Source: Eledone cirrhosa (taxonomy: Eukaryota). From it: DNA of 64,000 nucleotides. Location of the stretch: the NCBI GenBank assembly GCA_964016885.1, contig OZ024742.1, positions 378,696,001 to 378,760,000 on the forward strand, in the 5' to 3' direction. Positions 38,845 to 53,176 of this stretch are shown one piece after another. The notes beneath the pieces were generated by a model. That model did no database searches and was not told the DNA's origin. It saw nothing but the letters and a program-made list of their open reading frames with translations. Within the stretch, counting starts at the first letter, position 1. Each line of letters begins with the position of its first letter. Position numbers and translations under genes: made by a program.

Positions 38845-38936
38845 TCATCAGTGATCTACTAGCCATCATAGGTATTTCTTCGCATTAAAGACTAGATACC
38901 TCAGGTTAGCGCGAACAATAACTAAAATAAGTTATT
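38845..38936. ncRNA. Unidentified structured RNA motif (double pseudoknot), copy A
   Basis: Aligns nearly gap-free to 53086-53176 with compensatory changes in two long-range helices. Confidence 0.65.
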
Positions 38937-39002
38937 CCTCATTTTAATTTGTATATATATATATATATATATATATATATATATATATATATATATATAT
39001 AT

Positions 39003-40203
39003 ATTAGAATTGGAGCTCTGAAATAGCAATATATATATATATGGATGTATATATAATGTATTTTGCAATACACTTTATGCTTAATTAAAAGCATTTTGAA
39101 GACCGTAAGCTATTTTTTTAAAGTAGTGACAAATTCACTCACTTTGATCTCAGCAAACAGGGGAGATAAGCCGACATGACATGTTTCGCTTTGGTTGAAG
39201 CTTATCAAGGCCAACTACCCCACCTGTCTACTGAGATCATTGATGTTATATTCTTATAGAAATATAGTAAATAATCAGGAGCTGATTATGCAGAGCGGTT
39301 GTTGGTCAGGCAGAAATTAAAAATTAGAATTGGAGCTCTGAAATAGCAATATATATATATATGGATGTATATATAATGTATTTTGCAATACACTTTATGC
39401 TTAATTAAAAGCATTTTGAAGACCGTAAGCTATTGTTTTAAAGTAGTGACAAATTCACTCACTTTGATCTCAGCAAACAGGGGAGATAAGCCGACAAGAC
39501 TTGTCTCGCTTTGGTTGAAGCTTATCAAGGCCAACTACCCCACCTGCTTACTGAGATCATTGATCTTATATTCTTATAGAAATATAGTAAATAATCAGGA
39601 GCTGATTATGCAGAGCGGTTGTTGGTCAGGCAGAAATTAAAAATTAGAATTGGAGCTCTGAAATAGCAATATATATATGGATGTATATATAATGTATTCT
39701 CAGTAAGCAGGTGGGGTAGTTGGCCTTGATAAGCTTCAACCAAAGCGAAACAAGTCTTGTCGGCTTATCTCCCCTGTTTGCTGAGATCAAAGTGAGTGAA
39801 TTTGTCACTACTTTAAAAGCTTACGGTCTTCAAAATGCTTTTAATTAAGCATAAAGTGTATTGCAAAATACATTATATATACATCCATATATATATTGCT
39901 ATTTCAGAGCTCCAATTCTAATTTTTAATTTCTGCCTGACCAACAACCGCTCTGCATAATCAGCTTCTGATTATTTACTATATTTCTATAAGAATATAAC
40001 ATCAATGATCTCAGTAAGCAGGTGGGGTAGTTGGCCTTGATAAGCTTCAACCAAAGCGAAACAAGTCTTGTCGGCTTATCTCCCCTGTTTGCTGAGATCA
40101 AAGTGAGTGAATTTGTCACTACTTTAAAAAAATAGCTTACGGTCTTCAAAATGCTTTTAATTAAGCATAAAGTGTATTGCAAAATACATTATATATACAT
40201 CCA
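39003..40203. mobile_element. Non-autonomous retrozyme/pLTR-like insertion: 320-bp unit, ~2.2 copies in one orientation plus ~1.6 inverted, 4 HHR motifs
   Basis: Period 320 (39003, 39323, 39643); orientation flips at 39698; (TA)n on both sides; no credible ORF. Confidence 0.85.
39699..39786 (+). ncRNA. Type I hammerhead ribozyme, U3-A8 core variant (other copies: + ~40006-40099; - ~39145-39239 and ~39465-39559)
   Basis: GCC UUGAUAA GCUU-caacca-AAGC GAAA CAAG-u-CUUG UC GGC, with extended stem I CUCAGUAAGCAGG/CCUGUUUGCUGAG. Confidence 0.8.
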
Positions 40204-40239
40204 TATATATATATATATATATATATGTATATATATATA

Positions 40240-40365
40240 TATATTGTCATACTTTGGGAGGGTCATGTAGCATGCAGCATGACCCTCCCAAAGTATAACA
40301 ATATCTGTTTCAACACAGGTTTTCAGATAAGAAATCTTGCAAAACAAATTAAAAAACGAAGTACG
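40240..40365. mobile_element. Mini foldback derived from the 3' end of the pLTR family of the 46143-47232 element
   Basis: ATATTGTCATACTTTGGGAGGGTCATG and CATGACCCTCCCAAAGTATAACAATAT are inverted arms; the continuation resembles 47149-47230; embedded in (TA)n. Confidence 0.75.
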
Positions 40366-40723
40366 TATATATATATATATATATATATATATATGTATAT
40401 ATATATATATATATATATATATATGTATATGTATATATATATATATATATATATATATATATATATATATATATATATATATATATATATATATATATAT
40501 ATACAATATTAAATAAATGGAAACTATATTTATAAAACCATATTTATTTCATTATATATATTTCAGGGATATCATATTAACAATATGCTATGCCTTCCTC
40601 AGACAAAATACAATATAAACAGTTTTATAGATAAATAGTAATGTCAAAATTGCTATCTCTATCTGCTCTGGTCCATAGTTGGTCATTAAATTCTATCAAA
40701 GTTTTCCTAGCCGATAATATAAT

Positions 40724-49562: not shown

Positions 49563-49732
49563 GACGAACCCACAACATACACACGTCAACATACATACCT
49601 ACATCAGCACACATCTCTACCCACATATAAACACAATGACATCGTAAACACACATGCTCTATGGTGCAACACAAAAAAATATATGTGCATATATATATGT
49701 ATATATGTATATATATATATATATATATATAT

Positions 49733-51247
49733 AATATATTTAGAAACACACAGATACATGCGGACACACACACATACACATGAATGCATCCGCACCCAAC
49801 TGTGAGTTAAGGGTGCCAACTTCACCGATGTTGCTCAATGAATGACTGGGACAGACCAATTCATTTGAACCAGACTGAACCAGTATCAGAGTTAAAAATA
49901 CATTATGAAGAGAGAAGAAACATTTAGATATAATTAGTAATAAAATGTATCATACCTAAACTGCTCCTAAATTCCTCGACTACGTAGTTTCGTGGCATAA
50001 ACAAAAACAATATATCATAAAGATATAGAGTCCTTGCGAGGTCTGCCGACTTATCAAGAGGATACCTCATTTTACTAGTCTCAAGAACGCGTCTACACGA
50101 CGTGAGAAAGAATCCCAAAAGGCGGAGGGGGAGATAGTCACGCGATATAACGGTCGAGAAACAGAGCTAAGCCTCTTGTAACCCCGGTGTGTCCGCATGT
50201 ATCTGTGTGTTTCTAAATATATTGTTAATAACTCCCTCTGGTCGAGCAATCTTTGAAGTGTGGGGACAGCTGGAAAGCTTCCATTACTCATACTTCTCGC
50301 CTTCTTCACCACCTCTTCTACGGCCTCGATATAAATACCCCCTCCGCCTCTGTGCTATTTTCATCGGGGTTATAAGAGGCTTAGCTCTGTTTCTCGACCG
50401 TTATATCGCGTGACTATCTCCCCCTCCGCCTTTTGGGATTCTTTCTCACGTCGTGTAGACGCGTTCTTGAGACTAGTAAAATGAGGTATCCTCTTGATAA
50501 GTCGGCAGACCTCGCAAGGACTCTATATCTTTATGATATATTGTTTTTGTTTATGCCACGAAACTACGTAGTCGAGGAATTTAGGAGCAGTTTAGGTATG
50601 ATACATTTTATTACTAATTATATCTAAATGTTTCTTCTCTCTTCATAATGTATTTTTAACTCTGATACTGGTTCAGTCTGGTTCAAATGAATTGGTCTGT
50701 CCCAGTCATTCATTGAGCAACATCGGTGAAGTTGGCACCCTTAACTCACAGTTGGGTGCGGATGCATTCATGTATATGTGTGTGTGTCCGCATGTATCTG
50801 TGTGTTTCTAAATATATTGTTAATAACTCCCTCTGGTCGAGCAATCTTTGAAGTGTGGGGACAGCTGGAAAGCTTCCATTACTCATACTTCTCGCCTTCT
50901 TCACCACCTCTTCTACGGCCTCGATATAAATACCCCCTCCGCCTCCGTGGTATTTTCTTCGGGGTTATAAGAGGCTTAGCTCTGTTTCTCGACCGTTATA
51001 TCGCGTGACTATCTCCCCCTCCGCCTTTTGGGATTCTTTCTCACGTCGTGTAGACGCGTTCTTGAGACTAGTAAAATGAGGTATCCTCTTGATAAGTCGG
51101 CAGACCTCGCAAGGACTCTATATCTTTATGATATATTGTTTTTGTTTATGCCACGAAACTACGTAGTCGAGGAATTTAGGAGCAGTTTAGGTATGATACA
51201 TTTTATTACTAATTATATCTAAATGTTTCTTCTCTCTTCATAATGTA
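49733..51247. mobile_element. Non-autonomous retrozyme/pLTR-like insertion: 595-bp unit, inverted partial copy plus ~1.8 direct copies, 3 HHR motifs
   Basis: Period 595 (50433 to 51028); orientation flips at 50186/50187; TA tracts on both sides. Confidence 0.87.
50489..50578 (+). ncRNA. Type I hammerhead, U3-A8 variant with 59-nt stem II domain (copies 51084-51173 +, 49973-50062 -)
   Basis: UCCUC UUGAUAA GUcGGCA...UGCCAC GAAA CUACGUAG UC GAGGA; stem III is the palindrome ACUACGUAGU. Confidence 0.8.
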
Positions 51248-52020
51248 TATATATATATATATATAGTGAATATATGTGTGTGTATATATAAATAGTGAAT
51301 ATCATTTCACACCTTTTTTTGTTAAGATTTTTGATGTTCTATTAAGAGAACCGATTTTACTGAAAAAATCGAATAATGTACACCATTTTACCAGGGGGGA
51401 AAAAATACTGGTCCACCCACACACACACACACACACATATATATACACACACACATACACACGCGTACATCAACATACAAAGAGACTTATATATACACAC
51501 ACACACACACACACGCACTTCTCGGTATAAGACAAAAGCTAAAAATATCTTTTGACATGCTAAAATACCCCCCATTGCTTTCAGACACATTCTTACTGAC
51601 CATCCCTGCCACTACGAATTCTCTGCTATACACACACACACACACACACACACACACACATACACACACACACACACACTTATCTTAATAGCCATAAAAC
51701 ACACATCGCTGCTAACCATTATCACAACATCGAACACCTTACTACTACTACTACACACACACACACACACACACACACACACACACACACACACACACAC
51801 ACACACACACACACACACACACACATATTTGTTGTGAAAGAGTCATTTCTCAATCTTGGCGCAAAACCAATTTTTTATTCACATGAACTCTACCGACCAA
51901 TCAAAATTGTTTTGACCACAAGAATTTTTGCTGGAGCCACTTTTTTAACATAAAAACAGGTAGAATTTCCAAAACTAATCAGATCAGAGCAAACAGCACG
52001 GATACTCTAACTCAAAATTA

Positions 52021-52057
52021 TTTTTGAAAAGCATTTAGAAATGCGCAACCGGTAAAA
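52021..52057 (+). ncRNA. Variant minimal hammerhead-like motif in the P3 pLTR (inverted copy ~47669-47705)
   Basis: UUU UUGAAAA GCAUUU-ag-AAAUGC GCAA CCGG UA AAA; GCAA replaces GAAA in both copies. Confidence 0.55.
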
Positions 52058-53085
52058 ACTTAAAAACTTAAAACCACAACTGAATACTAACCCATACAAT
52101 CACTAATACTCTTTTATTCCTAATTAAACCATTTTTCAACTGTGAACAATTTGTCAGCATTTTCTATTCCGTTTACCAATATATAATAACTTGTGTGTTA
52201 CACCTCTATTCTTTTAACTATATATATATATAATATATATATATATATATATATATATATATATATATATATATATAACATTTCAGGTTATCAATAATGT
52301 AGTGATACTATATCGTCACGTTAGAGATGAACAGCATCCGTGTAGGTTTGCTCAACGAGTATAAATTATATTCCGGAGAAAATGTAGAAAAGATGAATAT
52401 AAAATGAAAGTGCTTTTATAAAGGAATTTATTAGGTATTGACATATGTTTCTGTAACAGATGGAATACCTATGTATCGCTGCTTGCGTAATCATATAATG
52501 TTAGCAAGTATTCGATAGCAAATGTATAATCAGTTGTCACTTCTTCAGAGATATTGGATAAATTGGAAAATATCAGAAAAATTGAAGTATTTATATTAGT
52601 TGTAAGAAAGGAAGAAGAGAGGGGATAGTATATGACAGATGGCAATCCAATTTACTGGTAAACAAGTATATAAAAGTTTCTAATGAGAATACAATCAGTA
52701 TATGGTTTATTTTATCTAAATAAGAATTTTGGGGAGTGCCTATTTTAATCTATACTTGACCAATTGAACAATGGACAGGACTGGTCGTTTGGTGTAGTAG
52801 TATTAATAGATATAGTGTCAATTAAGGAAGAGGGAGATTTTCACTGCTACTGAATAACAACAATGCTGGTAGCCTGCTGGTATATGCATTAGGGAATTGA
52901 ATTAAGAAATCTCATTTTATCTATAGAGAAAATGAGATTTCTTATATATATATATATATATATATATATATATATATATATATATATATATATTATTTCT
53001 AATATATATATATATATATATGTAATAAAATGGGGAGAAAAATACTGCTCGTAGCACATGGATAACATGTAATAAAATAAGTCCC

Positions 53086-53176
53086 TCATCAGTGATTTGC
53101 CGACGATCATAGATATTTCATTGCATTAAAAATCATATACCTCACGTCGGTGCAATAATAACTAAATTAAGTTATT
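53086..53176. ncRNA. Unidentified structured RNA motif (double pseudoknot), copy B
   Basis: Covaries with 38845-38936; an extra closing helix GTCC (53081) / GGAC (53178) is possible. Confidence 0.65.

Follow-up and report, generated by a model that had tools for sequence, protein, structure and literature searches.

A predicted permuted, doubly pseudoknotted hammerhead ribozyme in short, likely Naiad-derived retroelements of Eledone cirrhosa

Results

Two copies of an RNA motif lie in short tandem retroelements

We analyzed a 64,000-nucleotide stretch of the Eledone cirrhosa genome (the window; assembly GCA_964016885.1, contig OZ024742.1, positions 378,696,001 to 378,760,000 of the forward strand), in which a reading of the letters made without database searches (the sequence-only reading) had marked two diverged copies, A and B, of an RNA motif. 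Both sequences are present as quoted, at window positions 38845–38936 and 53086–53176, though these limits were drawn too short, as a closing helix, P, lies outside them. With P included, copy B (53081–53181, minus strand) is a complete predicted hammerhead of split SGC type by descriptor, alignment and RNAfold, and copy A (38838–38936, minus strand) is the same predicted ribozyme with the 5' strand of P lost through truncation. Both are 3' fragments of 500–620-bp non-coding tandem retroelements that insert at (TA)n. Copy B belongs to a 5'-truncated family B element (53016–53304, minus strand; unit about 515 bp) whose 3' end runs into (TA)n, and copy A to a 5'-truncated family A element (38762–38936, minus strand; unit 568 bp) with its 3' end at (TA)n. 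Copy A is broken off at a hairpin, H, where a short inverted copy of the 3' part of the element (38934–38952, plus strand) forms the 5' junction, an arrangement described for Penelope-like insertions (PMC8557442). We consider it highly probable that the motif is a minus-strand RNA predicted to form a permuted, doubly pseudoknotted hammerhead that would cut after AUC or AUA, carried by short retroelements that likely derive from Naiads, a group of Penelope-like elements.

The Eledone genome (3.0 Gb, AT-rich) was searched with patterns that demanded CUGANGA and GAAA, and not U16.1 or H17. One pattern, covering A and B, gave 4,349 matches vs 2 with the reversed control pattern; a second, excluding A/B-type copies, gave 517 vs 21; and a 25-mer out of copy B gave 1,441 exact matches vs none. 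The best 40 of 2,803 first-look candidates for family A were 96–98% identical. Copies A and B are members of two young families, not an orphan pair, and at least nine families (A, B, C, D, E, F, H, I and J), with subfamilies, were found among the fetched loci. Family J came from a pattern with 273 matches vs 811 for its control, a count that carries no weight. The motif patterns had no matches in viral contigs or in metagenome contigs, and three further sequence runs, searched as contigs, showed no more than the existence of related DNA.

Predicted fold and covariation

Read 5' to 3' on the minus strand, the motif begins with the 5' strand of P, hairpin H, the 5' strands of helices Q and X, and UGA, followed by a stem III strand, U16.1, H17 and a stem I strand; after a linker come the 3' strand of Q, N11.1, GAAA, the second stem III strand, a six-base linker, the 3' strand of X, the second stem I strand, CUGAUGA and the 3' strand of P. 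In copy B, with all features on the minus strand, P (5' strand 53178–53181, pairing with 53081–53084) is complete and joins the bases after CUGAUGA to those preceding the AATAAC hairpin. Hairpin H (53156–53177), supported by covariation and RNAfold, would be an arm of a four-way junction. The detached strand of stem II (53151–53155) pairs with 53121–53125 as helix Q, and X (53145–53150 with 53100–53105) provides the contact of stem I with stem II. The stem III strand that ends in U16.1 (53137–53141) pairs with 53112–53116 and the 5' strand of stem I (53131–53135) with 53093–53097; the core residues C3 to A9 (CUGAUGA) lie at 53086–53092 and G12-A13-A14-A15.1 at 53116–53119. By analogy with known hammerheads, the predicted scissile bond of copy B is at 53135–53136, after A17 of AUA (53136), and that of copy A at 38894–38895 on the same strand, after C17 of AUC (38895). 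Relative to most copies of its family, copy A has one mismatch each in stem I and helix X.

The covariation noted between the two copies holds over more of them. In an alignment of 22 copies (21 distinct), picked as the best preserved of each family, 22 of 35 model pairs show compensatory change among the distinct copies, and 94.1% of pair cells are paired vs 82.2% when shuffled and 31–45% in slid controls, a comparison that lends the prediction less weight because the aligned rows are kin, so that shuffle counts are not P values. The two long-range helices proposed in the sequence-only reading are real and compensatory (X, 98.4% of cells paired and five of six pairs compensatory; Q, 96.2% and two of five). 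Stem I, a pairing that this reading had missed, is 97.1% paired with compensatory change in all five pairs. For stem III the values are 94.4% and four of six, with A15.1-U16.1 in 21/21 rows, and for hairpin H 94.6% and three of seven; P is 83.8% paired, its four inner pairs holding and its outer pair weak. The proposal of a selected RNA structure in a TA-inserting mobile family is borne out.

Unguided RNAfold recovered P, H, X and stem III in copies A and B, and only P and X in L145, a Naiad contig described below. The descriptor scored copy B at 32 and copy A at 25, with no false positives in 4.76 Mb of shuffles (score ≥26, X ≥5), and a covariance model scored copy B at 141.6 bits, though copy B was in its training set. 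As had been suspected, the architecture escapes Rfam, which gave no gathering-score ribozyme match in the window and none at E ≤ 1 in nine motif-bearing loci. Readings as a hepatitis delta virus, twister, pistol or hatchet ribozyme were ruled out by helix order, compared with the consensus structures of these classes, and by the Rfam scans. The functional strand had been called ambiguous; we assign it to the minus strand because the core words occur there only, G-U cells outnumber A-C cells there (36 vs 15), and the motif lies in sense orientation to the open reading frame (ORF) in Naiad contigs.

Predicted catalytic core, junction and kink-turn

The hammerhead core words that had been recognized on the minus strand are invariant, with CUGANGA (CUGAUGA in copy B), GAAA and UH in 22/22 alignment rows and in 13/13 tabulated families or contigs. 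Position 17 is A or C, never G, in 118/118 copies, and all 13 families or contigs combine A15.1-U16.1 with a non-G at 17; their first stem I pair is U-A, C-G or G-C. In the alignment the stem II strand leads, the interaction strand and the predicted cleavage block come next, and GAAA and CUGAUGA close the order; the stems covary and the core does not vary.

Stem II does not form directly from the strands after A9 and before G12, which offer one such pair at most; the helix preceding GAAA takes its partner from the upstream strand. In the A-like families, 89.5% of cells pair the first base past CUGAUGA with the last one ahead of GAAA (U-G, A-U, U-A or C-G), vs 45.5% for the upstream alternative. 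The canonical G10.1-C11.1 pair is supplied by the upstream strand in family E and in the Naiad contigs L145 and L177, and several others allow either register. Because the register differs among families, the break is placed at A9 or one pair below it. We infer a four-way junction of core, P, H and Q, with zero or one unpaired base, in place of the A9/10.1 link into stem II.

In a standard kink-turn (k-turn), tandem G:A and A:G pairs come after a 3-nt bulge, and C:G is preferred at -1 (PMC8191799). The loop between stem III and X is predicted to be such a k-turn, with C:G at -1, and in copy B its bulged strand would be 53106–53111, opposite 53142–53144. The signature is present in 107/118 copies with the upstream strand intact (another 11, which lack it, were left out of the count) and in 19/22 alignment rows; some of the source patterns fixed part of the bulged strand, and none fixed its partner. 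It is missing in family I, in family E, which has a plain bulge, and in the four Naiad contigs, which have other loops. The sixth stem III pair never covaries, as expected if it is really part of a k-turn. The TGAT/ATCA stretch, taken in the sequence-only reading for a hairpin, is better read as half of the k-turn.

Host elements and their insertion pattern

Unit lengths from tandem loci are 568 bp for family A, about 515 to 518 bp for B and 622 bp for C, and the longest ATG frames measure 109, 89 and 75 amino acids, respectively. Each such unit is non-coding and carries one predicted ribozyme, and its motif strand is 67–71% pyrimidine. Units were found as monomers, dimers, trimers and a long array, the family B array at G000:C1:81546794-81612800 (loci L049, L050, L313 and L314), which spans at least 66 kb and comprises at least ~128 of the 515-bp units.

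Relative to the predicted cut, 92 distinct copies have constant 3' ends, which run into (TA)n. In families B and C they lie at about +120, with another set of C copies ending at +68; in A they lie at +130–138 or about +95. The two alternative end positions are 40–50 nt apart. The 5' ends vary and are often fused to an inverted copy. Fixed 3' ends, a tail at one end only, 5' inversions and tandem copies make up the insertion pattern of Penelope-like elements (PMC8557442). Between TA runs at window position 38410–38520 we also observed a short palindromic element, often beside A or B copies in other loci, which probably represents an inverted end from a different Penelope-like family.

The same predicted fold is found at Naiad 3' ends

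Naiads have been reported to lack canonical hammerheads, although cases of 'HHR_core' and 'HHR_half_core' were flagged, among them an Octopus Naiad and one of a squid (Craig et al., 2021; PMC8557442); the available text gives no structure for them. The supplement of that study lists at least 47 Naiads, of which those with core-word matches and those in part 24 were examined. By eye, the split form is present at eight consensus 3' ends (one ctenophore, three near-identical ones taken as cnidarian, two Octopus and two others), with one further degenerate case, and an intact CSG order at six, several of them nematode. The two Octopus ends have their hairpin loop, linker and 23-nt spacing in common with copies A and B, and reverse transcriptase (RT) remnants in the Eledone genome resemble the published Octopus Naiad, again by eye. 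Several ends in parts 16–19 of the supplement, apparently from spiders, have GAAA before CUGANGA with other spacing and extra hairpins, and are possibly a further arrangement.

Using a decayed RT of this genome and a Naiad alignment as queries, we found at least 120 Naiad-like proteins and retrieved 23 contigs. The split form was looked for in all 23 and CSG in 18; the Naiad alignment had no matches in viral contigs. Four contigs (L145, L146, L147 and L177) carry the split form in sense orientation 3' of the RT, with descriptor scores of 29–35 and 10–11 pairs in X. Each holds a single copy with every helix within ~100–130 nt. L145 encodes an N-terminal GIY-YIG, CxC, DKA and a C-terminal RT, and its motif core lies 183 nt past the stop; L146 has CxC, DKA and RT, its N terminus falling beyond the contig edge; L147 and L177 are of Naiad type by tblastn similarity alone. 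An intact CSG order is present in contig L176, and most of the other Naiad-like contigs stop at or near the ORF.

Two further features of these contigs are recorded here. L177 (1420–2300) runs ~1.8 kb past its RT match before the predicted ribozyme and, as PF00443 is found in some related proteins, may hold an extra domain. Thirteen contigs with a Naiad-like RT (L174–L186) come from prokaryote genome bins and are most likely animal DNA wrongly binned.

The window elements share with Naiads the (TA)n targets, tandem and 5'-inverted copies and one-ended tail (PMC8557442), as well as a predicted fold found in Naiad 3' untranslated regions (UTRs); unlike Naiads, they have no ORF. We conclude that they likely derive from Naiads, which likely appeared to lack hammerheads because theirs are split or permuted. 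We further judge it probable, with somewhat less assurance than for the motif itself, that the Naiad clade, from ctenophores to molluscs and arthropods, carries active hammerheads of CSG order or of a seventh topology, in which a four-way junction breaks the CUGAUGA block, and that in cephalopods this form acquired a k-turn and gave rise to thousands of retrozyme-like copies that escape current hammerhead searches.

The enzyme that moves the young Eledone families was also sought. Of 12 long open frames fetched, 11 belong to one Neptune-like family and one to another element with a C-terminal endonuclease. The Neptune-like family is young, with intact ORFs of ~780 amino acids or more (window 48335–49562 and loci L257–L268) and a conserved ~280-nt 3' UTR that has no hammerhead core and may hold another structure; it is a candidate helper. 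Since CUGANGA is lacking within the 3' 900 nt in 9/9 copies, we do not identify it as the helper for the motif.

Other features of the window

Ordinary hammerheads also occur in the window. A tandem array at 55316–57563 (495-bp unit, 4.5 copies, 100% matches) holds in each unit a minimal type I hammerhead, read from the minus strand, whose stem III is palindromic; the cores lie at 55623, 56118, 56613 and 57108. The array is an ordinary retrozyme of the non-LTR (long terminal repeat) kind, missed by Rfam. A Penelope-like fragment at 40500–44400, with a GIY-YIG-like frame at 41066–41677, contains minimal type I hammerheads at 43105 (plus), 44193 (plus) and 40602 (minus), the last in an inverted copy. 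Another type I hammerhead-like sequence lies at 63074 (minus).

Positions 1–37940 are occupied by a satellite built of ~51-bp units, with periods of higher order and with GC and AT skews that are both strong and constant. The only Rfam match in the window, a tRNA-like one of 41 bits at 47310–47381, is near-identical to sequence in other loci and is probably a tRNA-derived repeat. A LINE-like element at 59083–62252 has its endonuclease and RT split across two frames.

Discussion

Proposed mechanism

In the predicted fold, helix X would clamp stems I and II as in SGC and CSG ribozymes, the k-turn would bend stem III round towards X, and the four-way junction would bear both RNA ends. Hammerheads self-cleave after H17. 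Judging from hammerhead chemistry and the SGC and CSG assays, the motif would do the same, probably at a slow to moderate rate. On the model of non-LTR retrozymes, a single cut in each unit would free 500–620-nt monomers from multimeric transcripts, and a host ligase would circularize them. A Penelope-like RT/endonuclease could then prime internally, ~120 nt 3' of the cut, at (TA)n targets, and internal priming with rolling copies would give the truncated, inverted and tandem copies and the arrays.

Weighing the hammerhead reading and its alternatives

Several observations weigh against an active hammerhead of Naiad origin. We know of no assayed hammerhead in which the CUGAUGA block is broken, and the core-adjacent pair in families A–D is often U-A or G-U, not G-C. 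In their derivation of possible hammerhead orders, Eckert et al. (2023; PMC10085705) assumed that no block, CUGAUGA included, can be interrupted. Only 2/92 copies have a 5' end within 3 nt of the predicted cut, with no clustering there (family B extents in this count are limited by a deletion in the reference sequence); therefore the templates would be uncut or re-ligated. For a Penelope element of the anole lizard, cleavage is dispensable for insertion in vitro and no reads end at the site (PMC11167929).

Other points bear on the Naiad link. Four of nine Naiad-like contigs with at least ~350 nt past the ORF contain neither form. A covariance model restricted to nested helices and A-like families missed the motifs of the four Naiad contigs as well as the degenerate copy in locus L173, so homology is argued from architecture and location, not from alignment score. 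Among the 150 candidates scored per search, the Eledone genome yielded no intact Naiad, only decayed ones with open frames of up to 223 and 321 amino acids, and in 51 of its loci no motif lies downstream of a Naiad remnant. Because the Naiads are decayed and the motif is not downstream of them, the enzyme that moves the young families may come from outside the Naiads or from a Naiad that escaped the searches. A motif near a Naiad remnant in L140/L173 was rejected as a separate insertion ending in (TA)n.

Some of these observations would suit a fold that is hammerhead-derived, cuts little or never, and serves mainly as a 3' handle for a Penelope-like RT. The distance from the motif to the 3' end is constant at ~120 nt, 90/92 copies reach past the predicted cut on its 5' side, families A–D have a weak stem II, and the SGC and CSG ribozymes are themselves slow, at 0.004–0.19 per min (PMC10085705), while Penelope cleavage can be dispensed with in vitro (PMC11167929). 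Yet the catalytic letters are invariant though the stems around them have been replaced across families and phyla, and position 17 is never G, neither of which binding would need; copying from a ligated circle or from an uncut multimer would also be expected to give copies that span the site. We therefore regard a non-cutting handle as unlikely.

Much less probable still is the reading originally put forward, in which a hammerhead of type II, its loop I pseudoknotted, cuts after CUA. The core words do occur in the order G then C, copies A and B can form a TGAT/ATCA hairpin, and small hairpins are drawn at this place by RNAfold. This hairpin, however, is 84.5% paired with compensatory change in one of four pairs, is broken in family C, and is missing also in E, F, I, J and the Naiads. 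It would leave a stem III of one pair, whose loop is non-palindromic, so that dimers offer no rescue. The U16.1 of the CUA site carries other letters in 4/22 rows, the invariant U sitting on the upstream strand, and the k-turn accounts for the conserved letters.

We give equally little credence to a ribozyme that forms only between adjacent units or on a circle, with CSG order and a ~450-nt insert. The units are indeed tandem, and on a circle SGC, GCS and CSG are one object, but P closes the motif locally and the single-copy Naiad contigs are complete in ~100–130 nt; the cut site would in any case not differ. Finally, that the plus strand is the functional RNA, as another ribozyme class or structure, is scarcely credible: most helices fold there too (z -2.5) and a few pairs are G-U there, but the G-U excess, the core words and the Naiad ORF orientation agree on the minus strand, and neither strand has an Rfam ribozyme match.

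Implications

If the split hammerhead is correct, Naiads carry a non-canonical hammerhead, overturning its stated absence, and the main argument for the ribozyme as a dispensable parasite of Penelope-like elements falls. Non-circular permutations would pass from a few hundred viroid-like contigs to animal genomes and thousands of copies, and a topology would be added outside the six thought possible. The series from intact CSG to the split form suggests a route by which tandem repeats make permutations. Censuses of retrozymes and genomic ribozymes that use type I–III descriptors would have missed whole families.

Comparison with known hammerheads and retrozymes

The units resemble non-LTR retrozymes in being non-coding, AT-rich and tandem, with one hammerhead each and occurrences from dimers to arrays (PMC7229834; bioRxiv 10.64898/2026.07.22.740005), for which mobilization by Penelope-like elements has been proposed in the same sources. 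At 500–620 bp they are longer than the 170–400 nt of PMC7229834 and fall inside the preprint's range of 51–972 bp (bioRxiv 10.64898/2026.07.22.740005). Non-LTR retrozymes are, however, defined by type I hammerheads, whereas the order here is split SGC; earlier searches used type I descriptors and so were blind to the motif. The minimal dimeric type I hammerheads of Penelope-like elements have the same core and occur in the same window (43105, 44193, 40602 and 55623–57108), but in C-G-S order and with dimer pairing through a palindromic loop of stem III, where the motif pairs stem III in cis with an upstream strand.

The circular permutations of types I, II and III do not describe the motif, in which helices cross and Rfam finds no match. 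It nevertheless shares with the natural type II ribozymes of Perreault et al. (2011; PMC3088659), in which a one-pair stem II is active when clamped by a pseudoknot, a Watson-Crick helix that clamps stems I and II and a tolerance of a short stem II. Those ribozymes are circular permutations with a three-way junction, and their stem II strand is not detached. Hammerhead variants with additional helices are credited to Weinberg 2015 by PMC13725137; the available parts of PMC10162972 describe none. In the literature accessible to us, mostly outside subscription journals and in part only, we found no description of this fold or of a permuted hammerhead in Naiads.

The closest known relatives are the SGC and CSG ribozymes. 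Eckert et al. (2023; PMC10085705) divided the hammerhead into blocks S, G and C, derived six orders, and validated SGC (583 sequences), CSG (two natural) and GCS (one); SGC and CSG cleave in vitro at the slow rates given above. In SGC a short linker leads from stem I into stem II, and a helix bridges the far sides of these two stems. The motif shares with SGC (PMC10085705) the S-G-C order, two core pseudoknots, the short linker, the interaction helix and the invariant core. Unlike in SGC, block S of the motif comes after the stem II strand and the interaction strand, which stand at the 5' end, and helices P and H interrupt the C block; a four-way junction that adds two helices would stand at A9/10.1, and the cephalopod-type forms have a predicted k-turn. 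It also occurs in animal retroelement DNA, whereas the SGC and CSG ribozymes came from viroid-like metatranscriptome contigs (PMC10085705). Because its C block is interrupted we do not file the motif as SGC, although it would work like one: it is a CSG/SGC ribozyme closed to a ring and reopened within the CUGAUGA block.

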